A DNA stretch of 64,000 nucleotides, from positions 9,557 through 73,556 of the forward strand of contig JACQVN010000034.1 in assembly GCA_016209735.1 (NCBI GenBank), written 5' to 3'. Below, piece by piece: positions 5,001 to 50,709 of this stretch. The stretch is from Candidatus Methylomirabilota bacterium. Lineage in GTDB: Bacteria; Methylomirabilota; Methylomirabilia; Methylomirabilales; 2-02-FULL-66-22. Every line of letters starts with the position of its first letter. The stretch's first letter is position 1. Under the pieces are notes generated by a model. That model was not told the DNA's origin and searched no databases. It was given only the letters and a program-made list of their open reading frames with translations. The position numbers and the translations under genes are program-made.

Positions 5001-6359
5001 ATGATCACGTTTGGAGAAGGAAACCTTCGGATTCCCCGGTTCGGGAAGCCGGTGTATATCGTCGCGGGCGGGATGACGGACTTCCGGAAGACCTACCCGG
5101 AGAAAGCCACGGAAGAGCTCGCCGCGGAAGCCCTCAACATGGCGAGCCTCGAAAACGACCTCAAGGTTTCGATGCCAGAGTTCAAACGGTTGGTCAACTT
5201 CTGCGTCTATTCGCAGTTTGCCGACCATTTCGGCGACCAGCTCCTGGCCGCTGCCCGCGTGCACGACGCCCTGGGCTTCGACCCGCTGGGGAACTTCGAG
5301 GTGAAGACCGGCGGGGCCACGGGCGGCCACGCCGTCCTGGCCGGCGCCATGGCCGTGGCCTCGGGGTATGCGGACGTGGTGCCGGTGGTCGGCTGGGAGC
5401 GCATGGACGAGGTGTCCACCCGACAGGGGAACTCCTACATCGCCTCGGCCGCCTGCAAGAATTTTGAATCCGAACTGGGCTGGATGTACGCCAGCTATTA
5501 TGCCCTGATGGCCCAGCGATATCTGTACGAGAACCAGGTGCCCAGGGAAACGCTGGCGAAGATCACGGTCAAGAACCACCGCTACGCCTGCTCATCGCCT
5601 TTCTCCCAGAATCCGATGAAGCTCACGGAGCAGGAGGTGCTGGAGAACAAGATGGTCTCCGATCCCCTGAGCTTTCTGGAGTGCTGCCTGATGAGCACGG
5701 GGGCGGCCGCCCTGGTGCTGGCCGATGAAGCCATGGCCTTCAAGCTGACGGATCGGCCGGTGCGGCTGGCCGCGATCTGCTCCGGCACCCACACCCTGCG
5801 CACGGCGGACCGGCGGCCGATGGCAGTGCTGCGTCTGCCTCACGAGCCCGAAAATCTGTACCGGGACCGCAAGTGGGACTGGCCGGGGTTCAGCGCATTC
5901 TTGGCCACGCGCATGGCGGCGTACCTGGCCTACCAGATGGCCGGCATCGGGAACCCCCTCGAGGAGCTGGACCTGCTGGAGACCCACGACGCCTTCACCA
6001 TCAGCGACATTCAAACCTACGAGGATATCGGCCTGCGGCCGTACGGACGGGGGCGGGAATTCATCGAGAGCGGAGAGGCCTACCTGGGCGGCAAGCTGCC
6101 GACCAACCTGTCCGGCGGACTGCTGGGGGCCATGCACGCCGTGGGTGCCACCGGCATCTTTCAGATCGTCGAGGTCCTGTGGCAGCTTCAAGACAAGTGG
6201 GCCAAGTTTCACGCGGATCCGAAGATGTGGGAGCGCTTCGGCAAGGTCATGCCGGGCGATATCGAGAACCTTCAGGTGCCAAATGCCAGGCGCGGCGCCG
6301 CCATCAGCCACGCCGGGACCGGCAGCCACGTGACCATGGCGATTCTGGAGCGAGCCTGA
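5001..6359 (+). CDS. thiolase-like protein (SCP-x / archaeal-type acetyl-CoA acetyltransferase)
   Basis: 452 aa of the thiolase superfamily. It sits immediately upstream (10-nt gap) of a DUF35 OB-fold gene, the characteristic pairing for this subfamily. Confidence 0.8.
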   Translation: MITFGEGNLRIPRFGKPVYIVAGGMTDFRKTYPEKATEELAAEALNMASLENDLKVSMPEFKRLVNFCVYSQFADHFGDQLLAAARVHDALGFDPLGNFEVKTGGATGGHAVLAGAMAVASGYADVVPVVGWERMDEVSTRQGNSYIASAACKNFESELGWMYASYYALMAQRYLYENQVPRETLAKITVKNHRYACSSPFSQNPMKLTEQEVLENKMVSDPLSFLECCLMSTGAAALVLADEAMAFKLTDRPVRLAAICSGTHTLRTADRRPMAVLRLPHEPENLYRDRKWDWPGFSAFLATRMAAYLAYQMAGIGNPLEELDLLETHDAFTISDIQTYEDIGLRPYGRGREFIESGEAYLGGKLPTNLSGGLLGAMHAVGATGIFQIVEVLWQLQDKWAKFHADPKMWERFGKVMPGDIENLQVPNARRGAAISHAGTGSHVTMAILERA

Positions 6360-6972: not shown

Positions 6973-9900
6973 ATGACGGGTCACATCGCATACACGCCGC
7001 GCCACCAGGTCCGGTTCGTCACGGCGACCGCGCTGTTCGACGGCCACGATGCCTCCATCAACATCATCCGCCGCCTGCTCCAGCGCGCCGGGGCCGAGGT
7101 CGTCCACCTGGGCCACAATCGCTCGGGGACCGAGATTGTCGATGCGGCGATCCAGGAAGACGTCCAAGCCATCGCCGTCAGCTCCTACCAGGGGGGACAT
7201 AACGAATTCTTCCGCTATCTGGTGGATCTGCTGCGCGAGCGAGACGCGTCGCACATCCAGCTCTTCGGGGGGGGCGGCGGCGTGATCGTGCCCGGCGAAA
7301 TCCGGGAGCTGGAAGCCTACGGCGTGACCAAGATCTATTCGCCGGAGGACGGCCGCCGCCTGGGCCTCCAGGGCATCATCCGCCACATGCTGGAACGCGC
7401 AGACGCATTCCTCCCGCCTGTCAGCCCGGACGGCGACCTCTCCGGTCTCGGCACCCGGAGCGTCCGCCAGATCGCTCGCTTGATCACGCAGGCGGAAGGG
7501 CAGGTCGATGGGCCTGCCCCTGCCCGCGGCCTCTCGCCGACGGTGCTGGAGGCCCTCGCGCGCCGGGCCGCCGACCGCCGCTCTGCCGTCATCGGCATGA
7601 CGGGGACCGGGGGGGCGGGCAAGAGCTCGCTGGCCGACGAGCTCATCCGGCGGCTGCTGGGGGACTTCCCGGAGATTCACCTCGGGGTCCTTTCCGTCGA
7701 TCCGAGCAAGCGCAAGACCGGCGGCGCCCTGCTGGGGGATCGGATTCGTCTGAATGCGATACAGTCCCCCCGGGTCTACATGCGGTCCCTGGCCACCCGG
7801 CGCTCGGAGTCCGAGCTGCCGGAGGCCATGCGCCAGGCCATTCAGATCTTGCGGGCCGCCGGCTTTGACCTGATCTTCGTCGAGACGAGCGGCATCGGGC
7901 AGGGGGACTCGGCGGTCCTCGACGTCTCGGATGTGAGCCTCTACGTCATGACCCCCGACTACGGCGCCGCCTCCCAGCTCGAAAAGATCGACATGCTGGA
8001 CCTCGCCGACCTGGTGGCTGTCAACAAGTTCGACCGGCGGGGCGGTGAGGACGCCTTGCGCGCCGTGCGCAAGCAGATCCGGCGGAACCGGGATATTTCG
8101 TATGGCGTCCCGGACGTGGAGCTCCCGGTCTTCGGCACCATCGCCAGCCAGTTTGGCGACGTGGGGGTGACGGCCCTCTACCTCAGCTTGCTGGGACGCC
8201 TGGAGAGACTCCTCGGCGCGTCCCTCCGGTCCTCGCTCCAGGTGCCCGCGGGCGCCGTGGCCGGCGAGCGGCACCCCATCATCCCGGAGATGCGCTCCCG
8301 CTATCTCGGTGAGATCGCGGAGACGGCCCGCGCCCGGCGCGCCTGGGTGGAACGTCAGGTGTCGGTCGCCCGCCGGCTGTACCGGCTCGACGGCGCCGCC
8401 CGGGAGTGCGAGGAGCCTGCGATCCGGCAAGCCATCCAGAGCCGCTTCGAGGCGCTCCGTCAGGATCTGGACCCCGAGTGCTGGCAGCTCATCCAGGACT
8501 GGGGGAAACTCCAGCAGGCGTATGCGGGCGACAGCTTCGGCTTCGAGGTTCGGGGGCGCCAGGTTTCGGCCCAGACCACGACCCGAACCCTCTCCGGCAC
8601 CCGCATCCCCCGCGTGGCCCTGCCGCGGTTCGAGGACTGGGGCGAGATTCTCAGGTTCCGGCTGAACGAAAACGTGCCCGGCGCCTATCCCTACACGGCG
8701 GGGGTCTATCCCTTCAAGCGGAGCGAGGAAGAGCCTCGCCGCCAGTTTGCAGGCGAAGGGGGGCCCCAGCGCACCAACCGGCGGTTCCACTACCTGTGCC
8801 GGAATGACAGGGCAAAACGCCTTTCCACCGCCTTCGACAGCGTGACCCTGTACGGCGAGGAGCCGGACGAGCGGCCCGACATCTACGGAAAGATCGGCGA
8901 GGGGGGGGTCTCCGTCGCCACCCTGGATGACATGAGGACGCTTTTCGCCGGCTTCGACCTGACGGACCCCCTGACCAGTGTCTCCATGACCATCAACGGG
9001 CCGGCCCCGACCATACTCGCCATGTTCTTCAACACCGCCATAGACCAGGAGGCGAAGAAGTTCGAGGGGGCGCACGGTCGAGCGCCCGACCGCGAGGAGC
9101 GAGAGCGCATCCAACACGAGACGCTACGGGTGGTCAGGGGCACCGTGCAGGCGGACATTCTGAAGGAGGATCAGGCGCAGAACGAGTGCATCTTCTCGAC
9201 CGAGTTTGCCCTCCGGATGATGGGGGACGTGCAGCAGTACTTCATCGATCGGCGGATCCGGAACTTCTACTCGGTGTCCGTCTCGGGCTACCACATCGCC
9301 GAGGCCGGGGCCAATCCCATCACCCAGCTCGCCTTCACGCTCGCCAACGGATTCACCTATGTGGAGTACTACCTGGCCCGCGGGATGCCTATCGATGGTT
9401 TCGCGCCCCATCTCTCTTTCTTCTTCAGCAACGGCCTCGACCCGGAGTACTCGGTGCTGGGACGCGCCGCGCGGCGGCTCTGGGCCAGGGTGTTGAAGGA
9501 GCGGTACGGCGCCAACGAGCGCAGCCAGAAGTTCAAGTACCACATCCAGACCTCCGGCCGCTCGCTCCACGCCATGGAGATTCAGCTCAACGACGTCCGG
9601 ACCACATTGCAGGCCCTCACGGCCATGTATGACCAGTGCAACTCGCTCCATACCAACGCCTATGACGAGGCCATCACCACCCCCACCGCCGAGTCGGTGC
9701 GCCGGGCGGTGGCGATTCAGCAGATCATCGATCGCGAGTTCGGGATGACCAGGAACGAGAACCCGCTGCAGGGCTCCTATTTCATCTCGGAGCTGACCGA
9801 CCTGGTGGAAGAGGCGGTGCTGGCGGAATTCGACCGCCTGAACGCGCGCGGGGGCGTGCTGGGAGCCATGGAGCTTCAGTACCAGCGGAGCCGGATCCAG

Positions 9901-43474: not shown

Positions 43475-44086
43475 TCATGGCTTCAGTGGCAACTGGTCAC
43501 TGGCAGCCGGAGCCGTCTCCTCGAGGGGGCGCCCATCGCTGAAATGGTCCACCGTGAAAACCTGGATGTCGGCGCCCCGCCGCCAGGCATCGCCGGGCAG
43601 TCCTGCCTTCAGGCAGGCGTGGGAGAGAAAGGTGTCGCGATCCCACCCATACTCGGTGGCGACCTGGGGCAGCAACAGGCCGTGGCGGCTGCCCTGACTG
43701 ATATAGAGGCCATGGCGGCCGATCTGGATCCCGGCCACGCTGTCGATCCGTCGGAGGGGCGAGAGCACGGAAATCTCCAGGTGGAGATGCGGCAGCTCGG
43801 AGCCGCTGACGGGTGGGAAGCGAGGATCGGCCGTGGCGGCGGCGACGGCGCAGTGTCGGACGGTTTCGGCCAGGCTCTGGACTGCGCGCACGAAGCCGAT
43901 GCACCCGCGGAGGGCGCCATCCCGCGTCAGGGTAACGAAGGCGGCGCCGGGCTGTTGAAGCGCCGAGTCGGTCGGGAGCGCCGAGACGCTCACCACACCG
44001 CGCACCCGCTCCCGGATGGCGCGACGCGCCAGGGCGAGGAGCGCGGCCCTCTGTTGTGGGCTGAGGATCGGAGCCTCGTCAGGCAT
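43475..44086 (-). CDS. AMMECR1-domain protein (AmmeMemoRadiSam system protein A)
   Basis: Internal ATG 44086 of track ORF 43475-44455 (MPDEAPILSPQQRAALLALARRAI...GAFVTLTRDGALRGCIG...LLPQVA). Confidence 0.85.
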   Translation of the reverse strand: MPDEAPILSPQQRAALLALARRAIRERVRGVVSVSALPTDSALQQPGAAFVTLTRDGALRGCIGFVRAVQSLAETVRHCAVAAATADPRFPPVSGSELPHLHLEISVLSPLRRIDSVAGIQIGRHGLYISQGSRHGLLLPQVATEYGWDRDTFLSHACLKAGLPGDAWRRGADIQVFTVDHFSDGRPLEETAPAASDQLPLKP

Positions 44087-44612
44087 GGGTGGACGATTCC
44101 TCCAGGTTGCGGTGCCAGTATACCCGGACGAGATGGTCGTCGTCCGAGAAGCGGATTTCCAGGTGCCCGTGGTGCGCGCGGTGCACCGCGCGGCCGAGGC
44201 GCCGCGCCAGCTTCTCGGAGGTCGTTTCGATGAGGAAGGTCTCCTTGGGGCCCCAGTCCGTATGGATGATCCGCTCGAGCGGGTTCTTCTGCAGGGCGTT
44301 GCGCTCGGAATTCTGGATGCATTGCAGGATCTGGCTGCGGTTCTGCCAGAAGTAACTGCCGGCAAGGTACAGGATGCCCGCAGGGTTGTCCTCGCGGATC
44401 TGCCGGCAGGCTGGGCAGAGGGCCTTGACCGGGGACTGCCAACGCAGGGTGGCACGCCGGACGGCGGGATCCAAGGACCAGTTGCCTTTGTGCCAGATGG
44501 CGTTGCAGCGCGTGCAGATGGCAGGATCGGAAGGAGGCTTGGTGTCGCGGAGCGAGGAGACCTGGTGCAGCATCTTGTCCCGGCGGGTCAACCGAGCCTT
44601 GGCTGAGATCAT
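44079..44612 (-). CDS. zinc-ribbon protein of unknown function (NMD3-like / BCAM0308-like family, tentative)
   Basis: 177 aa. CTRC...CPAC pairs followed by a conserved-looking alpha/beta domain. The family assignment is from memory only. Confidence 0.55.
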   Translation of the reverse strand: MISAKARLTRRDKMLHQVSSLRDTKPPSDPAICTRCNAIWHKGNWSLDPAVRRATLRWQSPVKALCPACRQIREDNPAGILYLAGSYFWQNRSQILQCIQNSERNALQKNPLERIIHTDWGPKETFLIETTSEKLARRLGRAVHRAHHGHLEIRFSDDDHLVRVYWHRNLEESSTHA

Positions 44613-44855
44613 TGCTCTCCTCCTTGACAGGGTTATCGACGCCTGGGAGCACTATATCCCCCGTGGAGAATCTTTGCAACGAATGACTCGGGCGGGGTGG
44701 GAATCCGGCGGGGAGAGGAGAGGAGTTGCCGACCGCCGCCCGGAGGCGCGAGAGGGGTGTGGGCCCCGAGCGGCGGTGGCGGCGAGCAGGGTCCCGAACA
44801 CTGCACCGCCCATCCCGTCCCGGAAGATGACCCGGCGTTCAAGTCCATCTGCGGC

Positions 44856-44884
44856 TTGACGGTGGGATGTCAGCGTGCTAAAAG
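44856..44884 (+). promoter_or_regulatory. candidate sigma-70-type promoter TTGACG-17 nt-TAAAAG
   Basis: TTGACG at 44856-44861 and TAAAAG at 44879-44884, about 135 nt upstream of the adenylyltransferase start. Sequence match only. Confidence 0.4.
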
Positions 44885-45019
44885 GTGACAGATTCGGTAA
44901 CGAATGCCAAGACACGGAAGCTCCCCGAGAGGGCAGAGGGGGGCGGATGCATGATCTGACGGTCCGGAGAGGGCGCCCCAAGGCAGCTTCAGCGGGGCCA
45001 CTCCCCGTGGAGGAACGGC

Positions 45020-45877
45020 ATGAGCTCGAGCGGCGGCGGTCAGGGGACACGGGGGACGGCTCCGACGTTTTCCGAGGAGCAAATCCGACGCTACAGCCGG
45101 CATATTCTCCTGCCCGAGGTGGGCGGCCGGGGGCAGCGGAAGCTTCTCAACAGCCGAGTCCTGTTGATCGGGGCAGGGGGGCTGGGCTCGCCGGCGGCGC
45201 TGTACCTGGCGGCGGCGGGGGTGGGAACCCTGGGGGTCGTCGATTTTGACGCGGTGGATCTCAGCAATCTCCAGCGGCAGATCTTACACCACGTCCGGGA
45301 CGTGGGCCGCCCGAAGGTGGAATCGGCGGTCGACACCATCCGGGAAATCAATCCGGACGTGAAGGTGATCCCCCACAAGCTCGCGCTCTCGTCCGAGAAC
45401 GTGCGCGAAGTCTTCGCGCCCTACGATGTCATCGTCAACGGCTCCGACAATTTCCCCACTCGCTACCTGGCCAATGATGCCTGCGTCTTCATGCGAAAGC
45501 CCCTGGTGGACGGCAGCATCTTCAAGTTCGAAGGACAGGCCACGGTCTATCTCCCGGGGAAGGGGTGCTATCGCTGCCTCTACCCAAAGCCGCCGCCGCC
45601 CGGGCTGGTGCCCAGTTGTGCGGAGGCCGGGGTCTTGGGGGTGCTGTGCGGCGTGGTGGCCTCGATCCAGGGTATCGAGACGATCAAACTGCTCCTGGGG
45701 CTCGGCGATTCCCTGGCGGGGCGCCTGCTCTTTTTCGACGCCCTGGGCATGGAGTTTCGCCAGGTGAAGATTCGCCGCGATCCGACCTGCCCGGTGTGCG
45801 GCGACAGCCCGACGATTACCGACCTCATCGATTACCACGAATTCTGCGGCGTGCCGAAGGAGGTGCGCCTGAGCTAG
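45020..45877 (+). CDS. ThiF/MoeB/HesA-family sulfur-carrier-protein adenylyltransferase (no rhodanese domain)
   Basis: 285 aa. RYSRHILLPEVGGRGQRKL, LLIGAGGLGSP, and Zn-site Cys pairs CYRC and CPVC. Confidence 0.9.
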   Translation: MSSSGGGQGTRGTAPTFSEEQIRRYSRHILLPEVGGRGQRKLLNSRVLLIGAGGLGSPAALYLAAAGVGTLGVVDFDAVDLSNLQRQILHHVRDVGRPKVESAVDTIREINPDVKVIPHKLALSSENVREVFAPYDVIVNGSDNFPTRYLANDACVFMRKPLVDGSIFKFEGQATVYLPGKGCYRCLYPKPPPPGLVPSCAEAGVLGVLCGVVASIQGIETIKLLLGLGDSLAGRLLFFDALGMEFRQVKIRRDPTCPVCGDSPTITDLIDYHEFCGVPKEVRLS

Positions 45878-46114
45878 CCCGCATTATTCGCGAACACGCC
45901 TCGCGAATACTGCGGGCTTAACAAAACACCAAGTGGGATGCGACCAAGGCCCGAAGCGGTGTCGTTATTGCCTATCGGCAGCTCACCCATCTCAGCGGAC
46001 GAATAACTTGGTGTGCCCAGCGGCATTGGGCATCCCGCCGCAGGCGGGAATGATTCTAGATCATTAAGCCCGGACTGTTCCCGAATCACGAAGGATTCGG
46101 GAATAGTCCGGGCT
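45876..46114 (+). repeat. type-B hairpin-bounded repeat element, copy 2 (fills the intercistronic gap between the adenylyltransferase and JAMM genes)
   Basis: Terminal hairpins lie at 45876-45918 and 46067-46114. The first hairpin overlaps the TAG stop codon (45875-45877). Internal helix ACACCAAGT/ACTTGGTGT. Confidence 0.85.
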
Positions 46115-46144
46115 GCGCGGGGCGAAGCCGTGACGGGAGCGAGA

Positions 46145-46639
46145 GTGAAAGGGCTTTCCCCGGATCATCTCGGTCGGATTGTTCGGGAGGCGGAGGCTGG
46201 CTACCCGGAGGAAGTGTGTGGCGCGGTCATCGGTCGACGCGGGGAATCCGATACCTACGAGATCCGGGCGCTGCCGAACATCGCCAACCGTGCCGGACCG
46301 CGAGGCCCCGACGGGAGCGTGCGGGACGCCCGGACTGCCTTTCTCGTGGACCCGGTTGCCGAGTGTCGGCTCCTGAGGGAGATCGAGGAGTCCGGCCGGG
46401 AGATCGTCATCTTCTATCATTCCCATCCTGACGCGGACGCCTATTTTTCCGCCATGGACCGGGAGCTGGCGCTCGCAGGCGGTCGCGAGCCCTGGTGGCC
46501 GGGGGTCGAATACCTGGTTGTCTCGGTTCGTCAGGGGCGGGCCGTGGCGGCCGCCCTGTTCGCCTGGGATCCGCTCCGCCGCGAGTTTGCCGATCACCCT
46601 GTTCCGGTCCCTGTGCCAGAGGGTATCGGGCCGGGCTAG
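46145..46639 (+). CDS. JAMM/MPN+ (Mov34) metalloprotease, Mec+/CysO-peptidase-like
   Basis: GTG 46145 inside track ORF 46013-46639. EEVCG and the JAMM motif HSHPDADAYFSAMD. Confidence 0.88.
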   Translation: MKGLSPDHLGRIVREAEAGYPEEVCGAVIGRRGESDTYEIRALPNIANRAGPRGPDGSVRDARTAFLVDPVAECRLLREIEESGREIVIFYHSHPDADAYFSAMDRELALAGGREPWWPGVEYLVVSVRQGRAVAAALFAWDPLRREFADHPVPVPVPEGIGPG

Positions 46640-46711
46640 GCGGCTGGATCCTCGCGGCAGAGTTGGGCTATCCTGTTTGGGTCGCGTCGTTGGAGACGCG
46701 ATCCGGGGGGG

Positions 46712-47215
46712 GTGGTGAAGACCCAAGAGGCTCTGAGTCTGATGATTGCCCTGGAAGAGCGGGTGGCCCGCGTGTACACTCACTTCTTCCGGACGTTTCG
46801 CGACGACCCGGCAGTGGCCCGCTGCTGGTGGGAAATGGCCCTCGATGAGCACGGTCACGCGGGCATCCTCACGATGGTTCGCGAGCTGGTTTCGTCCCAG
46901 GCGGAAGCCGGGGAGGTTGGCTCGCGGCTGTGGACGCTGGTCGAGGCGGTGGAGCACTGCGAGGCGGAGGCGCGCGAGGTAACCGCGCTGGACCGCGCGG
47001 TGGAGCTGGCCATCCGGCTGGAGTCCTCGGAGCTGGATGCCCTGGCCCATCGCATCATCGAATCCGTGCGGGCGCAACTCCCGGAAGGGGCGGGGCGAGC
47101 GTTTCTGGCCACCGAGGGCCATTGCCGCCCGCTGGCCGAGGCGGCCGCGCACATCCACGACCGAGCCGTGCGCCACCGCCTGGAGGTATTCCTGGCAGGC
47201 GCGAAGGCTCGCTGA
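46712..47215 (+). CDS. ferritin-like / rubrerythrin-like four-helix hypothetical protein
   Basis: 167 aa with a GTG start. Helical, with an E...EHGH-type segment (EMALDEHGHAGIL). Family not firmly recognised. Confidence 0.5.
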   Translation: MVKTQEALSLMIALEERVARVYTHFFRTFRDDPAVARCWWEMALDEHGHAGILTMVRELVSSQAEAGEVGSRLWTLVEAVEHCEAEAREVTALDRAVELAIRLESSELDALAHRIIESVRAQLPEGAGRAFLATEGHCRPLAEAAAHIHDRAVRHRLEVFLAGAKAR

Positions 47216-47342
47216 TCGCGGCGGCGAAGCAAGTTCCATGACCGCGTGCCAATGGCGCCTGACCAATCTCTACGGAAGTTCTGAAAGGATCGGGATTGGT
47301 CATTGGCAAATTGGTCATTGGGAATTTCGGAATGGAGGCGCC

Positions 47343-47585
47343 ATGAGTAGACGACGCGTGCACCTCACGTTCCAGGGGCAGCTCGCCGACGAGCCGGCCC
47401 TCTGGAATATGAGTCAGGAGTTCGGGCTGGTGTTCAACATCCGCCAGGCCGACCTGGAAGGCGGCTTCGGCTGGGTCATGCTGGAGCTGGAGGGCGGAGA
47501 CGACCAGTTGGAAGCGGCCGTCCGGTGGCTCGAGGGGCGGGGCGTGATCGTGGCGCCCATCGAGCAAGACATCGTAGCGGGATGA
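47343..47585 (+). CDS. NIL-domain protein (80 aa), paralogue 1
   Basis: ATG 47343 behind GGAGG. MSRRRVHLTFQGQLADEPALWNMSQEFGLVFNIRQADLE...LELEGGDDQLEAAVRWLEGRGV is NIL-domain-like (the MetN C-terminal domain type). Confidence 0.75.
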   Translation: MSRRRVHLTFQGQLADEPALWNMSQEFGLVFNIRQADLEGGFGWVMLELEGGDDQLEAAVRWLEGRGVIVAPIEQDIVAG

Positions 47586-47621
47586 CCGCGACATGCCGAA
47601 CGACGCTGCGGAGGTTTTCTC

Positions 47622-47650
47622 TTGACACACCCCACGGATCCTGCTTAAAT
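47622..47650 (+). promoter_or_regulatory. near-consensus sigma-70-type promoter TTGACA-17 nt-TTAAAT
   Basis: TTGACA at 47622-47627 and TTAAAT at 47645-47650, about 17 nt upstream of the riboswitch P1 stem. Confidence 0.6.
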
Positions 47651-47666
47651 CCGCCCACTTCGCTGA

Positions 47667-47764
47667 CTCATCCAGAGTGGCTGAGGGACTGGCCCGACGA
47701 AGCCACGGCAACCCCGCGCCGGCGGGGTGCCAACTCCTGCCCCGCCTGAGCGGGGAGAGATGAG
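47667..47764 (+). promoter_or_regulatory. SAM-I (S-box) riboswitch aptamer
   Basis: CTCATCCAGAGTGGCTGAGGGACTGGCCCGACGAAGCCACGGCAACCCCGCGCCGGCGGGGTGCCAACTCCTGCCCCGCCTGAGCGGGGAGAGATGAG matches the S-box consensus blocks (YTCATC.AGAG.GGC.GAGGGA.TGGCCC..TGA.GCC.GGCAACC...GGTGC.AA.TCC.GC...AGAGATGAG) with P1 closure CTCATC/GATGAG. Confidence 0.9.
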
Positions 47765-47791
47765 AGGGCGGCGATGGACGCTGTCCGGATG

Positions 47792-47830
47792 CCCCTTCTC
47801 ATGAAACGGTGAGAAGGGGTCTCGCGTTTT
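47792..47830 (+). terminator. riboswitch expression-platform hairpin (terminator; alternative antiterminator with 47761-47770)
   Basis: CCCCTTCTCA (47792-47801) / TGAGAAGGGG (47810-47819), then TCTCGCGTTTT. The 3' P1 strand plus GAGAGGGCGG can alternatively pair with CCCCTTCTCA. The U-tract is short and offset. Confidence 0.5.
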
Positions 47831-47841
47831 CCGGGAGGGTC

Positions 47842-48075
47842 ATGGTGGCGACGTTGCGGGTGCGCTTGCTGTTCCCGGCAGAGCTGGTGCGGGAGCCGAT
47901 CATCTATTCCGTCGCCACGAGACACCACCTGATTCCCAACCTCCGCAAGGCACGAGTCACGGAGCGATCCGGCGAGGCGATCCTCGACCTCAGCGGGGAT
48001 GAAGAGTCTCTCAGACAGGGGATCGAGTACTTGACGGGCCTGGGGGTGAAAGTCAAACCGCTGCCGATCGAGTGA
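47842..48075 (+). CDS. NIL-domain protein (77 aa), paralogue 2
   Basis: ATG 47842 behind GGGAGGG. MVATLRVRLLFPAELVREPIIYSVATRHHLIPNLRKARVTERSGEAILDLSGDEESLRQGIEYLTGLGV. Confidence 0.75.
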   Translation: MVATLRVRLLFPAELVREPIIYSVATRHHLIPNLRKARVTERSGEAILDLSGDEESLRQGIEYLTGLGVKVKPLPIE

Positions 48076-48091
48076 GGGGGAACGCGAGTCG

Positions 48092-49363
48092 ATGAGCGAC
48101 ATCAAGGGGTTGAAGTGTCGAGAATGCGCCCGGGCCTATCCCATCCGTCCCGTGCATGTCTGCGAGTTCTGCTTTGGGCCCTTGGAGGTCGACTACGACT
48201 ACGCCGCCATCGGGGCCAGGGTGACTCGGCAGAGCATCGAGGCTGGGCCGGCCACCATGTGGCGCTATCGGGCGTTGCTGCCCGTAGACGGCGAGATCGT
48301 GGTGGGGCGCTATTGCGGCCTCACCCCCCTGGTGGAGGCGCGCAATTTGGGCAAGGCCCTCGGCCTCCGCCGCCTCTACCTCAAGAACGACACCGTCAAC
48401 CACCCGACGCTCTCCTTCAAGGACCGGGTGGTGGCCGTGGCGGTGAACAAGGCCCTGGAATTCGGTTTCCCGGTTGTCGCCTGCGCCTCCACCGGCAACC
48501 TGGCCAACTCGGTGGCCGCCCACGCCGCGGAAGGAGGGCTGACGAGCTTCATCTTCATTCCCGCGGACCTGGAGCGGGGGAAGGTGCTGGGGACTTCGAT
48601 CTACGCGGCGAATGTGGTGGCGGTCCGCGGGACCTACGACGAGGTCAACCGCCTGTGCAGCGAGATTGCCGACAAGCACGGGTGGGGCTTCGCCAACATC
48701 AATCTGCGACCGTTCTACGCCGAGGGGTCCAAAACCTTCGGCTACGAGATCGCCGAACAGTTGGGGTGGCGTGCTCCGGATCACGTGGTGGTGCCGGCGG
48801 CGGGGGGGTCCTTGATCACCAAGATCTGGAAGGGCCTGCGCGAGTTTCACGGCCTGCGCCTGATTCCGGGCGTGCCGACGCGGATGCACGTGGCACAGGC
48901 GGCGGGCTGCGCCCCCATCGTGACCGCGGTCAGGGCGAATACCGACCTCATTCGGCCGGTCAAGCAGCCCACGGGGATTGCCAAGTCGCTGGCCATCGGC
49001 AACCCGGCCGACGGGTACTACGCCTTCAAGACGGTCAAGCAGAGCGGGGGGATGGGGGAAGAGGCGACCGACGAGGAGATTGTGGATGCCATGAAGCTCT
49101 TGGCAGCGACCGAGGGAATATTCGCCGAGACGGCCGGCGGGGTCACGCTGGCGGCGACCCGGAAGCTGGTCCAGCAGGGCGCGATCGGGCGGGACGAGGT
49201 GACGGTCGCCTGCATCACCGGGAACGGCCTCAAGACTCAGGAGGCGGTGGCGGCGGCCCTGCGACCCCCGATCCACATCCAGCCGACGCTGCGATCGTTC
49301 GATGAGATCTTGACCCAATCCAACGGCGCCGGCCCGAGCCTGGTGGACGGCAAGGCGGCGTAG
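48092..49363 (+). CDS. threonine-synthase-family PLP enzyme with N-terminal zinc ribbon (candidate homocysteine-forming, MetM-like)
   Basis: 423 aa. CRECARAY...CEFCFG ribbon, PLP-lysine motif HPTLSFKDR, and a ThrC-like fold throughout. The functional guess rests on SAM-riboswitch control and the adjacent sulfur carrier. Confidence 0.85.
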   Translation: MSDIKGLKCRECARAYPIRPVHVCEFCFGPLEVDYDYAAIGARVTRQSIEAGPATMWRYRALLPVDGEIVVGRYCGLTPLVEARNLGKALGLRRLYLKNDTVNHPTLSFKDRVVAVAVNKALEFGFPVVACASTGNLANSVAAHAAEGGLTSFIFIPADLERGKVLGTSIYAANVVAVRGTYDEVNRLCSEIADKHGWGFANINLRPFYAEGSKTFGYEIAEQLGWRAPDHVVVPAAGGSLITKIWKGLREFHGLRLIPGVPTRMHVAQAAGCAPIVTAVRANTDLIRPVKQPTGIAKSLAIGNPADGYYAFKTVKQSGGMGEEATDEEIVDAMKLLAATEGIFAETAGGVTLAATRKLVQQGAIGRDEVTVACITGNGLKTQEAVAAALRPPIHIQPTLRSFDEILTQSNGAGPSLVDGKAA

Positions 49364-49446
49364 CGTGCAATCGATGCGGGTGCGCCTCCGCCCCTGGCGG
49401 GCGGCGGCCAGTGCCCACCTGACCACGACGAAGGAGGGGAGATCGC

Positions 49447-49989
49447 ATGGCAGTTACCGTTCGAATTCCGACTCCGCTACGGGCATTGACGGGCGGGAAG
49501 GGGGACCTCCGGATCGAGGCCGCGAACGTTCGGGATCTCGTGGATGGGCTGGAGAAGGAGCACACGGGCCTGAAGGAGCGGCTCTGCGAGAGCGACGGTT
49601 CGTTCCGGCGGTTCATCAACATCTATCTGAACGATGAGGACATCCGCTTTCTTCAGGGGGCGGACACCGGTCTCAAGGACGGGGACGAAGTGTCCATCGT
49701 CCCGGCCATCGCCGGCGGCCGCCAGCTTCGCCGCCCCGCGCGCAGGGACGGGAGGACGGGACAGGACTTACAGGATGATCAGGATCGGTCGCCCCGGTCA
49801 AACCCCTCTTTCCTCTCCGGTCTGCCCAGGGAAAGGCGCGTTCTTGGTACGGAGAGCCTCCCACGAAGGGACAATTCTCGGCAGCACGAATGTCTTCGAG
49901 CCCTGGGACACGCAGCGAAAGCTCGTCCAGGAAGATGGCCTCCAGTTCCCGCACCAGACCCGTATCCTCGCCGAGGCCGAAAAGATTGA
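49447..49989 (+). CDS. CysO/MoaD/ThiS-family sulfur carrier protein; the ubiquitin-like domain ends ...VPAIAGG at 49719 but the frame stays open for 89 further low-complexity codons
   Basis: Residues 1-91 (MAVTVRIPTPLRALTGGKGDL...FINIYLNDEDIRF...GDEVSIVPAIAGG) closely resemble mycobacterial CysO. No stop codon follows Gly-Gly (GGC GGC CGC CAG...). The first in-frame stop is at 49987-49989. Confidence 0.8.
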   Translation: MAVTVRIPTPLRALTGGKGDLRIEAANVRDLVDGLEKEHTGLKERLCESDGSFRRFINIYLNDEDIRFLQGADTGLKDGDEVSIVPAIAGGRQLRRPARRDGRTGQDLQDDQDRSPRSNPSFLSGLPRERRVLGTESLPRRDNSRQHECLRALGHAAKARPGRWPPVPAPDPYPRRGRKD

Positions 49990-50535
49990 CCAGCACGTGA
50001 TCGGGAAGGCGCAGGCCGTCCCGGCCGGCCGCCTCCTGCCGCTGCCATTCCATTTCCCCCGGCAGGAAGATGCGATCGGCGCTCTTGGAGCGGGGGGCGC
50101 TCTTGATCTCGCGGATCATGCCGTCCATGCGCTCCCTGAGGTCTGCACGGGCATCATGGCGGGAACGTCGATGGCGACGAAGGCGATGGGGTTCGTCCCC
50201 AGGATAGGGCCGCACCCTCCGGGGAGCGTCATCCAGGGATCGGTGTTGGTCATGGCCATCCCGATCATGTCCTCCTTGAGAGCCATGACCGCGTAGTAGC
50301 CGGCGGCGCCGAAGTGGTTGCTCCCGCGCACGCCGCCATAGGCAATGCCCGCGGCCTTGGCTTTCCGCATGGCGAGTGCCATGGCGCGGAAGGCAATGAC
50401 CGTCGGCATGCCCCGGCGACCGTCCACGACGGCCCAGGCGGGGCCTTCGCCGACCGTCTGGGGAAGGGCCCGGGGGTCGATCCGGCCGTCCCGGCGCTGC
50501 AATACAATCAGGCCCGGCAGGAAATGTCCAACGAA
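49930..50535 (-). pseudogene. decayed malate/L-lactate dehydrogenase-family (Ldh_2) gene: N-terminally truncated, internal deletion with frameshift
   Basis: One frame reads ...RIDPRALPQTVGEGPAWAVVDGRRGMP...AKAAGIAYGGVRGSNHFGAAGYY...ILGTNPIAFVAIDVPAMMPVQTS and stops at 50116. A different frame continues DLRERMDGMIREIKSAP...DRIFLPGEMEWQRQ..., the family's C-terminal part. About 100+ central residues and ~45 N-terminal residues are missing. The end coordinates are approximate. Confidence 0.65.
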
Positions 50536-50709
50536 TTATCGGGGACGGGCGGCATATAGCGTATGGCTTATGGCTAGGCCATGGTTCCGTCTCTGCCATA
50601 CGCCACGTGCCATCGGCCCTAAGCCCAATGCTGCTTACATAGACGTGGGACACGGGGGGGTCCGCCTCTCCGAAGGAGTCCGGAGTCCAGCGGACCGGCA
50701 GATGCGAAC

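Follow-up and report, generated by a model that had tools for sequence, protein, structure and literature searches.

We analysed a gene cluster in a window of 64,000 nucleotides (the whole stretch of DNA under study) from an uncultured groundwater bacterium of the NC10 group (Methylomirabilota). The cluster contains seven genes, the reading frames of which are all intact, and these are arranged in two units, the second headed by a SAM-I riboswitch. The genes and the riboswitch were found where the original prediction had placed them; what it had said of the carrier end did not hold, the promoter at 44856 is a weak match, the E1 resembles MoeZ over part of its length, and the ferritin assignment proved weak. 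The features, all on the forward strand, are as follows.

44855–44883, + strand: candidate promoter of unit 1, TTGACG-17-TAAAAG (a weak match, from sequence only)
45020–45877, + strand: E1-like adenylyltransferase (ThiF/MoeB/UbaA type) of 285 aa (PF00899, 277.8 bits)
46130–46639, + strand: JAMM/MPN+ metalloprotease, Mec/HcyD-like (Prok-JAB, 68.9 bits; motif HSHPDADAYFSAMD)
46712–47215, + strand: NC10-specific helical-bundle protein of 167 aa (sub-threshold Rubrerythrin match)
47343–47585, + strand: NIL-1, a stand-alone NIL protein of 80 aa (PF09383, 62 bits; gathering score 24)
47622–47650, + strand: candidate sigma-70-type promoter of unit 2, TTGACA-17-TTAAAT (read from the letters alone)
47665–47766, + strand: SAM-I riboswitch aptamer (RF00162, 86.9 bits; gathering score 44.4)
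47791–47832, + strand: putative expression platform: terminator-like GC-rich hairpin of 12 bp with CUCGCGUUUUCC after it (MFE fold)
47842–48075, + strand: NIL-2, a stand-alone NIL protein of 77 aa and the first gene under the riboswitch (PF09383, 44 bits)
48092–49363, + strand: MetM-type ThrC-family PLP enzyme with an N-terminal four-Cys ribbon (PALP, 228.9 bits; clade placement)
49447–49719, + strand: MetO-type carrier of ThiS/MoaD fold, 91 aa to AIAGG (PF02597, 56 bits)
49720–49989, + strand: read-through extension of the carrier gene: R, 88 further codons rich in Arg/Pro, and the stop codon (frame as read)

The PLP enzyme encoded at 48092–49363 scored 272 bits against TIGR00260, the NCBI thrC equivalog model (cut-off 167), so that it is still a 'threonine synthase' by that model, and it is approximately 40% identical to solved ThrC structures. 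Both values would suit a genuine threonine synthase, in which case the carrier, E1 and JAMM protease would serve some other process, for example protein conjugation or the making of molybdopterin, thiamine or (CysM-type) cysteine, and their adjacency to the enzyme would be coincidental. Such a reading also gains from a cyanobacterial homologue with threonine-related activities, which behaved in vitro as a threonine synthase/deaminase and not clearly as MetM (PMC12172450), and from the closest relative (L084), in which a CysK/M-like gene lies inside unit 1 and that unit can therefore serve cysteine synthesis. The phylogeny that the original prediction had named as a check argues against it. Using an actinomycete locus from Nonomuraea as a proxy for S. 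albulus MetM, we found that the window enzyme groups with MetM-type loci, apart from genuine ThrC, in a clade of 83 sequences (SH-aLRT 99) that also contains the Nonomuraea enzyme and the cyanobacterial homologues. The ThrC structures 2zsj and 1uim fall outside this clade, and the canonical ThrC paralogues that stand beside the MetM-like gene in five related loci (L003, L009, L012, L057 and L078) form a separate one. The alignment gave a similar result. The PLP lysine (K110) is common to the window enzyme and ThrC; T88, S155, N157 and R160 of Thermus thermophilus ThrC, which are uniform across the ThrC rows, are uniformly substituted in the MetM-type clade (L137, N204, R206 and Y209 in the window enzyme). 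The ribbon cysteines C9, C12, C24 and C27 are invariant.

Gene linkage bears on the same question. We compared 80 related loci from approximately 18 phyla, and in 72 of them, spread over many phyla, a GG carrier adjoins the MetM-like gene on its 3′ side. A SAM-I riboswitch lies directly upstream in 27 of the 80 and also in the Nonomuraea locus, which has the order SAM-I, enzyme, carrier and an enzyme 52% identical to that of the window; genes of the ThiF, JAMM and CysK/M-like families are nearby in many of the loci. The SAM riboswitch is a signal of the methionine regulon and not of threonine synthesis. With the clade, the substituted residues and this linkage on the other side, we consider it extremely unlikely that the enzyme is a genuine threonine synthase.

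The clade placement together with the linkage to carrier and SAM-I riboswitch therefore identifies the cluster as a member of the known MetM/MetO (+E1, +JAMM) pathway. The first report of this route, for Streptomyces, dates from 2024 (Hasebe et al. 2024, Appl Environ Microbiol 90:e01247-24), and GapMind 2026 includes it. In S. albulus, MetM, MetO, Mec and MoeZ have experimental support and a SAM riboswitch lies 5′ of metM (PMC13759103, 10.1101/2024.10.14.618325, PMC12172450). The S. albulus system resembles the window in its ThrC-homologous PLP enzyme with a GG carrier of ThiS/MoaD fold behind it, in the riboswitch at the 5′ side, and in its E1 and JAMM helpers. The window differs in that helper genes and operon form one cluster, the E1 is without a rhodanese domain and the carrier has a tail of 89 residues; it also has a NIL gene on either side of the riboswitch and the ferritin-like gene specific to NC10. 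The NIL genes, the NC10-only gene and an E1 without the rhodanese domain of MoeZ thus lie beyond the published pathway. Experimental precedent for MetM chemistry in the clade comes from Streptomyces, and elsewhere this chemistry is predicted. The CysO/CysM/Mec+/MoeZ pathway of Mycobacterium tuberculosis likewise feeds a thiocarboxylated ThiS-fold carrier to a PLP enzyme acting upon a phosphorylated amino acid, with a JAMM protease and a ThiF-type E1, but its PLP enzyme is of the CysM family whereas that of the window is of the ThrC family and under SAM control. A thiocarboxylate-dependent methionine pathway (HcyS/HcyF/HcyD/MetY) was reportedly described in Wolinella succinogenes by Krishnamoorthy and Begley in 2011. 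The residues after the Gly-Gly of its carrier are said to be removed by a JAMM protease and the thiocarboxylate to feed homocysteine synthesis, as we propose for the window; its acceptor enzyme is reportedly an O-acetylhomoserine sulfhydrylase of the Cys/Met-metabolism PLP family, whereas the window encodes a ThrC homologue.

We infer the substrates and the order of steps as follows. The carrier would be made as a pro-protein, which the JAMM protease of unit 1 is predicted to trim to a free C-terminal Gly-Gly. The ThiF-type E1 would then adenylate the Gly-Gly, and a sulfur donor, acting in trans because a rhodanese domain is missing from the E1 itself, would convert it to the thiocarboxylate. 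Finally, the ThrC-like enzyme, for which we predict the role of a homocysteine synthase dependent on O-phosphohomoserine and carrier thiocarboxylate, would eliminate phosphate from O-phospho-L-homoserine and add the thiocarboxylate at C-gamma to yield homocysteine; an adduct of carrier and homocysteine may form on the way, and the JAMM protease would perhaps hydrolyse it, as Mec does with CysO-cysteine. The thiocarboxylate might instead be used on another acceptor (O-phosphoserine, O-acetyl- or O-succinyl-homoserine, or aspartate semialdehyde) or to make another sulfur compound for SAM-dependent metabolism. The identity of the substrate is taken solely from the Streptomyces precedent, the residues differing from ThrC include positions that we take to be phosphate-binding in T. 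thermophilus ThrC, and an unrelated system of methanogens, which leads from aspartate semialdehyde to homocysteine, has NIL domains as well. On the other hand, SAM control and the identity to an actinomycete locus with the architecture of S. albulus favour the S. albulus reaction, and the ThrC family is specialised for O-phosphohomoserine, so use of another acceptor appears very unlikely. The original prediction, in which a ThrC homologue makes homocysteine from O-phosphohomoserine and the carrier thiocarboxylate, is supported by clade, linkage, riboswitch and precedent, and we consider it highly probable that the cluster carries out homocysteine synthesis of the MetM/MetO type, with ThrC-like enzyme and sulfur carrier, under SAM control and with the NIL proteins as a third component.

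The SAM control that had been proposed stood up to the covariance model: the RF00162 match (E 3e-19) covers the full length, model positions 1–108 of 108. In L001, L084, L085 and L086 the aptamer is likewise placed between two NIL genes. The TTGACA-17-TTAAAT element is present as predicted, and this candidate promoter lies approximately 14 nt 5′ of the aptamer; it went unscored in the consensus scan because its −10 hexamer has no A at position 2. The platform hairpin gave z-scores of −3.2 and −3.95, and the U-tract of the terminator-like element is short. Base complementarity suggests that the 5′ arm of the hairpin could pair instead with the 3′ strand of aptamer P1, forming an anti-terminator. 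Unit 2 (promoter, SAM-I, NIL-2, MetM-like and MetO-like genes) would then be turned off in the presence of SAM through a terminator-type platform.

Unit 1 supplies the helpers. Its candidate promoter was not picked up by the consensus scan; in relatives, an Rrf2 regulator gene occupies the place upstream of the unit, and no Rrf2 remnant was found in the window. The likeness of the helpers to CysO/MoeZ/Mec was borne out in part, in that E1 and JAMM protease are both present and the E1 is missing the rhodanese domain of MoeZ. The E1 matches only positions 14–276 of 392 of the MoeZ model (389.8 bits, cut-off 647). It also has no N-terminal ThiS domain. Its sequence shares 81% identity with the ThiF portion of a ThiS::ThiF fusion in L001, one of two loci (with L084) in which a second carrier domain is fused to the E1; tblastn detected no ThiS remnant upstream of it. 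Neither a sulfur donor gene nor a CysM-like gene was found in the window. The JAMM open reading frame spans 46013–46639 and contains the exact HxHx7Sx2D motif HSHPDADAYFSAMD; alignment to the L001 orthologue (50% identical) indicates that translation probably starts at the GTG at 46130.

The carrier is 60–67% identical to carriers 3′ of MetM in other NC10 loci, the termini of which read AIAGGR* or AIAGGW*. The window carrier had been described as ending in AIAGG, but the frame has no stop after the GG at 49714–49719 and continues to a stop codon at 49987–49989. DNA homology to L001 breaks off at 49722, and the DctQMP/GntR neighbours present in relatives were not found in the window, indicating that the 89-residue tail arose by loss of the stop codon at a rearrangement breakpoint. 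Alternatively, this tail might inactivate the carrier, in a genome that is losing the pathway. The stop was lost exactly at the breakpoint, beside a decayed gene; the decay of Ldh_2 and a MITE insertion point in this direction, and some relatives have a deletion of the NIL-NIL-MetM segment, with MetM remnants retained in L088. Nevertheless, all seven reading frames are intact, a JAMM protease is encoded within the cluster, and the identical tail occurs in Logan contigs of three groundwater runs, making it the consensus in three samples. Long extensions after the GG are also found in nature: 1–7 residues follow it in many loci and 38–164 in L066, L047 and L086 (single extensions of 164 aa in L047 and 42 aa in L086), and whole NIL or ThiF domains follow it in 11 loci. 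Such tails being common, trimming at the GG would be a built-in step. We thus regard an inactivated carrier as unlikely, and the tail is presumably taken off by the JAMM protease.

The original prediction had left the NIL and ferritin-like proteins without a role, and this was borne out; no description of the NIL proteins of this system was found in the searchable literature. By profile, the NIL proteins match the C2 domain of the methionine ABC importer ATPase MetN (E 2.6e-9). They share with it the beta-alpha-beta-beta-alpha-beta fold (AF2 model) and a nearly invariant Asn equivalent to N295, represented in NIL-2 by N33; the MetN N295A mutant loses L-methionine binding. In contrast to MetN, the NIL proteins are free-standing at 75–80 residues or fused behind the carrier, and their genes accompany that of a biosynthetic enzyme, not of a transporter. 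The DUF39-type system of methanogens and sulfate reducers similarly ties a NIL domain genetically to homocysteine via sulfur transfer (PMC13759103, PMC5764234), but there the NIL protein comes with ferredoxin domains and a DUF39 enzyme and there is neither a ThiS-type carrier nor a ThrC-like enzyme. Small NIL proteins accompany the MetM/MetO system in many phyla. Of the 80 MetM-like loci, 42 have an adjacent NIL gene, and in none does NIL occur without a carrier (hypergeometric P ~0.002, not corrected for phylogeny). No NIL gene is nearby in the other 38 or, unlike the window, in the Nonomuraea locus, and NIL is therefore not essential to the chemistry. We think it most likely that these proteins form a third part of the system. 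As small modules of the MetN C2 type that bind methionine or homocysteine, they would adjust the enzyme, or the cycling of the carrier, to the amount of product.

An alternative to sensing would be a structural role at the carrier, as its cap, its chaperone or a hand-off factor, with NIL made equimolar with the carrier and freed by JAMM cleavage. Nine loci have independent fusions in which NIL follows the carrier GG and a linker, recalling ubiquitin, which is made fused to ribosomal proteins. The strict co-occurrence with the carrier is in keeping with such a partnership. MoaD-MoaE fusions that need cleavage at the GG provide a precedent (PMC4326299). Against it, NIL retains the methionine-binding Asn of MetN; in Chloroflexota NIL lies between enzyme and carrier and is never fused; and an AF2 model of a natural carrier::NIL fusion, in which both domains fold well (pLDDT 94), gave no confident interface between them (pTM 0.59). 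We view partnership as a plausible but distinctly less probable role than sensing. NIL-1 and NIL-2 are 29% identical. In the tree, NIL-1 belongs to an NC10-specific clade with the upstream NIL of L001, L084, L085 and L086 (SH-aLRT 99), and NIL-2 clusters with the lone NIL found in loci of the Thermodesulfovibrio and Caldimicrobium types. NC10 genomes keep two old NIL paralogues, one on either side of the riboswitch. Being encoded 5′ of the riboswitch, NIL-1 is outside SAM control and would be made constitutively with the E1/JAMM unit, and NIL-2 would be made only at low SAM.

The remaining gene of unit 1 had been called ferritin-like, a label that the Rubrerythrin score of 20.8 bits (cut-off 22.8) supports weakly; 20 of 33 family members match Rubrerythrin in this weak fashion. 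AF2 predicted an all-helical protein (pLDDT 88), for which Foldseek found no significant match in the PDB (best E 0.1, TM ≤0.58). We found 90 homologues, and the named ones are almost all labelled NC10. The gene stays beside ThiF-JAB-ThiS even in loci from which MetM and NIL have been deleted, and the family is confined to NC10 and tied to the E1-JAMM-carrier module.

Seven open frames with clear family matches were found on the + strand of the window between 45020 and 49989, along with a SAM-I riboswitch. Four of the genes make up unit 1, and the remaining three, headed by the riboswitch, make up unit 2:

45020-45877, +: ThiF-family E1, 285 aa (277.8 bits)
ORF from 46013, with the real start at about GTG 46130 as judged by orthologue alignment, +: Prok-JAB/JAMM protease
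46712-47215, +: helical 167-aa protein (ferritin-like)
47343-47585, +: NIL-1, 80 aa (NIL PF09383, 62 bits versus a cut-off of 24)
47665-47766, +: SAM-I riboswitch, between the two NIL genes
47842-48075, +: NIL-2, 77 aa (NIL PF09383, 44 bits versus a cut-off of 24)
48092-49363, +: ThrC-family PLP enzyme, 423 aa
from 49447, +: ThiS/MoaD-fold carrier (PF02597, 56 bits), directly downstream of the enzyme gene

The gene cluster and riboswitch are real and as described in the original prediction, apart from the end of the carrier. The riboswitch was recovered by the RF00162 covariance model over its full length (positions 1-108 of 108) with 86.9 bits against a gathering threshold of 44.4. It is preceded by the promoter-like sequence TTGACA-17-TTAAAT and followed by a predicted 12-bp GC-rich hairpin with a short U-tract (CUCGCGUUUUCC); an alternative pairing between the 5' arm of this hairpin and the 3' strand of P1 is visible in the sequence. 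The layout appears to be that of the usual SAM-off terminator switch. The window thus offers a clean example of the system, with E1, JAMM protease, carrier, enzyme, and riboswitch all in one place. Upstream of unit 1 and divergent from it, a gene for a BCAM0308-family protein (NF040826, 137 bits) is found at 44079-44612 on the - strand; at this position relatives carry a + strand gene for an Rrf2-type regulator. The spacer between the ferritin-like gene and NIL-1, which is only 12 nt in the syntenic NC10 locus L001, contains an extra ~115 nt in the window, within which a short direct repeat (attggtcattgg) occurs twice at 47291-47325.

We examined whether the ThrC-like enzyme is of the MetM type or a threonine synthase by maximum-likelihood phylogeny. 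The window enzyme, 80 relatives, and the enzymes of L001 and of a Nonomuraea locus formed one clade of 83 sequences on a long stem (SH-aLRT 99), which also takes in cyanobacterial homologues. This clade stands apart from the threonine synthases of known structure (2zsj and 1uim), and also from the canonical ~360-aa ThrC genes co-resident in five of the related loci (L003, L009, L012, L057, and L078), so that the clustering with genuine threonine synthases that would have spoken against a MetM-type enzyme was not seen. The MetM of S. albulus is absent from the tree and is represented by the Nonomuraea actinomycete locus as a proxy; there the order is SAM-I riboswitch, enzyme (52% identical to that of the window), and Gly-Gly (GG) carrier, which is the Streptomyces MetM/MetO architecture. 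Members of the clade carry about 55 additional residues at the N-terminus, a ribbon with four invariant cysteines, and retain the PLP lysine. Four positions that are uniform in ThrC are uniformly replaced in the clade (T88→L137, S155→N204, N157→R206, and R160→Y209, in Thermus/window numbering); several of the replaced residues are presumably phosphate ligands. The closest database relatives of the enzyme (70-84% identical) come nearly all from NC10/Methylomirabilota metagenome bins, and every source name seen for its relatives was 'threonine synthase'. The TIGR00260 thrC equivalog gives the window enzyme 272 bits against a cut-off of 167, and the genuine ThrC of L003 333 bits. MetM-type enzymes and ThrC are therefore not told apart by this model, which accounts for the label in the databases. 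No further PALP-family gene was found within the 64-kb window.

The placement of the enzyme in this clade, the adjacent GG carrier, and the SAM-I riboswitch support the MetM/MetO-type interpretation originally proposed, and the cluster likely belongs to the known MetM/MetO homocysteine pathway. By analogy, homocysteine is predicted to be made from O-phospho-L-homoserine and the carrier thiocarboxylate. The pathway (Hasebe et al. 2024), as summarised in GapMind 2026 (PMC13759103 and preprint) and in PMC12172450, is made up of MetM, the carrier MetO, the hydrolase Mec, and the ligase MoeZ; MetM is a homologue of ThrC that annotation often mistakes for threonine synthase, and in S. albulus a SAM riboswitch lies upstream of metM. 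This riboswitch arrangement is common to S. albulus and the window, and a ThrC-homologous enzyme, a GG carrier, and a JAMM/Mec hydrolase are likewise shared with the published pathway. In contrast to that pathway, the window has two NIL partners and an NC10-specific helical protein, its E1 lacks a rhodanese domain, and its carrier is tailed. What goes beyond the published pathway is the NIL proteins. As the clade passes the standard threonine-synthase model, this methionine route may be missed in metabolic reconstructions of NC10, Nitrospirota, Chloroflexota, Planctomycetota, Verrucomicrobiota, and others.

Gene linkage was assessed in 80 related loci from about 18 phyla (55-66% identity), obtained by a search from a 12-sequence alignment. 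The NIL and ThiS domains were called with HMMs built from domain-cut seeds, since natural fusions otherwise merge the two families; no calls overlapped. A GG carrier is adjacent to the enzyme gene in 72 of the 80 loci, and a SAM-I riboswitch lies directly upstream of it in 27. ThiF, JAMM, and CysK/M-like genes often lie nearby too, as in a Nitrospira locus with the order CysK-like, ThiF, enzyme, carrier, NIL, ThiF, JAMM. A stand-alone NIL gene adjoins enzyme and carrier in 42 of the 80 loci, following the carrier in Nitrospirota, Thermodesulfobacteriota, Verrucomicrobiota, and others, and lying between enzyme and carrier in Chloroflexota. In nine loci the NIL domain is joined by a short linker behind the GG of the carrier. 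NIL was found without a carrier in none of the 80 loci (hypergeometric P ~0.002, a value that ignores relatedness). About half of the loci thus have NIL either linked to the carrier or fused with it, and there are good genomic grounds for regarding it as a functional part of the system and a possible new component of it. It is absent from cyanobacterial, Gemmataceae, Brocadiaceae, and actinomycete loci, which indicates that it is not needed for the chemistry. Our literature search found no paper connecting NIL domains with sulfur carriers or with MetM.

The NIL profile matches the C2 domain of MetN, the ATPase of the methionine importer (E 2.6e-9), and a nearly invariant Asn aligns with N295 of MetN, the mutation of which to Ala abolishes L-methionine binding (PMC6233128). 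The best reading is that NIL may be a small methionine- or homocysteine-binding regulatory partner; should it sense methionine, the MetN regulatory domain would have been put to a new use here and would add a second level of control. The main rival to this reading is that NIL serves the carrier structurally or in a hand-off. When a naturally occurring carrier::NIL fusion was modelled with AF2, both domains came out well folded (pLDDT 94), the NIL domain as beta-alpha-beta-beta-alpha-beta, and the pTM was 0.59 with no confident interface or fixed docking; the model neither supports nor excludes docking.

A pair of NIL genes sets NC10 genomes apart and occurs in the window, L001, L084, L085, L086, and L089. 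Of these, the window, L001, L084, L085, and L086 were searched with the riboswitch model, and in all five the aptamer separates the two NIL genes, such that one copy would escape SAM control and the other would be subject to it. NIL-1 and NIL-2 share only 29% identity. The upstream copies make up a clade confined to NC10 (SH-aLRT 99), and the downstream ones fall together with the single NIL of Thermodesulfovibrio- and Caldimicrobium-type loci. We tentatively entertain a joint reading in which NIL would be a third MetM/MetO component in many phyla, absent from the pathway as published, whose members act as MetN-C2-type methionine/homocysteine sensors and give a carrier-dependent homocysteine synthase fast protein-level feedback atop the SAM riboswitch. 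The NC10 pair would then be ancient paralogues, one constitutive and one SAM-repressed, and in other lineages a carrier-GG-NIL pro-protein would have to be cut by a JAMM protease; E1, JAMM protease, and carrier would have an additional partner in the NC10-only ferritin-like protein, which might for example protect or supply the thiocarboxylate sulfur.

The parallel to MoeZ and Mec drawn in the original prediction holds in part. The JAMM motif E...HxHx7Sx2D is present (HSHPDADAYFSAMD, with EEVCG upstream; Prok-JAB 68.9 bits versus a cut-off of 25), as in a Mec-type protease, but the E1 lacks the C-terminal rhodanese domain of MoeZ. It matches the MoeZ model over positions 14-276 of 392 only, with 389.8 bits against a cut-off of 647, and is a MoeB/UbaA-like protein. 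Without a rhodanese domain in the E1, the sulfur must come from a separate donor. In two Methylomirabilis-type loci (L085 1-5088 and L086 1-4156), the NIL - SAM-I - NIL - enzyme - carrier operon directly adjoins sulfate-assimilation genes (for sulfite reductase, PAPS reductase, and ATP sulfurylase) and a gene for a rhodanese-domain protein. It is plausible that the neighbouring rhodanese of such loci acts as the sulfur donor in trans to a rhodanese-less E1.

In L001 and L084 a second carrier domain, absent from the window E1, is fused to the N-terminus of the E1. Carrier::E1 fusions of the form ThiS - GG - linker - ThiF are located at L001 4885-5994, L084 65-1174, and L020 8235-9299. A recent loss of the ThiS domain by the window E1 was considered and rejected, as 276-aa E1 genes without a fused carrier domain occur in other NC10 loci. 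At only 37-53% identity to MetO-type carriers, the fused domains of L001 and L084 represent a second carrier species, one that probably serves a CysM-type branch. L084 has a CysK/M-like gene between its E1 and JAMM genes, which makes this a CysO/CysM/Mec-type cysteine module. No CysM-like gene was found in the window. At the position of the CysK/M-like gene of L084, the window has about 250 bp of low-GC, non-coding sequence separating the E1 gene from the JAMM gene (45878-46129), an element bounded by two hairpins (cccgcattattcgcgaa...ttcgcgaatactgcggg and cccggactgttcccgaatc...gattcgggaatagtccggg).

The carrier had been thought to end at AIAGG, a motif found at 49705-49719 with its GG at 49714-49719. 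The frame, however, runs on past the GG through an Arg and 88 Arg/Pro-rich codons (89 residues) to a stop at 49987-49989. The carriers of NC10 relatives end in AIAGGR* or AIAGGW*, and DNA similarity between the window and L001 extends precisely to the R codon (49722) and no further. GntR and DctQMP, which lie behind the carrier in relatives, were not found anywhere in the window in a tblastn remnant search, which also found no remnants of Rrf2 or CysM there; the place of GntR/DctQMP is taken by a decayed Ldh_2 gene on the opposite strand. The end of similarity at the R codon and the absence of the relatives' downstream genes indicate that the stop codon was lost at a rearrangement breakpoint. 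The Ldh_2-family gene (malate/L-lactate dehydrogenase-like) lies at 49673-50653 on the - strand and abuts the read-through tail; its Pfam match is confined to the final 55 positions of the profile in one frame, and a middle part is in another frame. A sequencing error as the cause of the missing stop was rejected, as Logan contigs from three groundwater runs of one study, which possibly include the source sample and so are not fully independent, are identical to the window with zero differences, and the missing stop is thus not an error of one assembly. The public runs containing the stretch are groundwater metagenomes.

Extensions behind the GG are found in other carriers as well. About half of the carriers in the related loci stop exactly at GG and many have 1-7 extra residues. 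Longer extensions are present in L066 (38 aa), L086 (42 aa), and L047 (164 aa), and a whole domain follows the GG in 11 loci, this being NIL in nine and ThiF in two. The L047 extension, in a Chloroflexota carrier (8583-9347), is a 164-residue passenger domain (..KYYRASPGAYQALKQLQDYVEQSGLERPLLELVKLRASQL..), which makes this another carrier pro-protein. These extensions and fusions suggest that JAMM-protease cleavage at the GG is built into these systems. Precedents are cleaved MoaD-MoaE fusions and archaeal ubiquitin precursors (PMC4326299, PMC6043591). Given that the cluster has its own JAMM protease and that long tails occur naturally elsewhere, the tail of the window carrier is expected to be cut off: the protease would remove the 89 residues and expose the carrier Gly-Gly. 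The stop-less carrier, together with the carrier::NIL and carrier::E1 fusions, suggests that Gly-Gly processing is routine in these bacterial systems, in parallel to that of ubiquitin precursors.

The label 'ferritin-like' for the 167-aa protein of unit 1 was not sustained. The Rubrerythrin match is below threshold (20.8 bits versus a cut-off of 22.8), covers the first half only, and recurs as a weak match in 20 of 33 relatives. No PDB sequence match was found. The AF2 model is composed entirely of helices (pLDDT 88), and a Foldseek search of the PDB with it returned only insignificant ferritin, nigerythrin, and heme-oxygenase-like matches (best E 0.1, TM ≤0.58). On these grounds the protein was not placed in any family. 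Only 90 homologues were found (45-75% identical, except for one identical entry among them that is apparently the window's own protein), and those with named sources are almost all labelled NC10. Residues E16, E46xxH49, C38, C83-E84, E104, and E107 are conserved in the family, which makes a metal site possible. In two NC10 loci the NIL-NIL-enzyme segment is deleted and ThiF, JAB, the ferritin-like gene, and the carrier are still found together; in L089 the ferritin-like gene precedes NIL-NIL-enzyme-carrier without an E1 or JAMM gene. We conclude that the ferritin-like protein belongs with the carrier module in NC10. In L088, one of the loci lacking the NIL-NIL-enzyme segment, an internal deletion took out the enzyme and both NIL genes and left E1, JAMM, ferritin-like gene, and carrier intact; between the ferritin-like gene and the carrier (5502-5848), pieces from either end of the MetM-like gene are still recognizable (..NGLYCRECAR.. 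and ..VTVICG..). A more distant homologue of the ferritin-like protein is encoded beside znuABC and fur.
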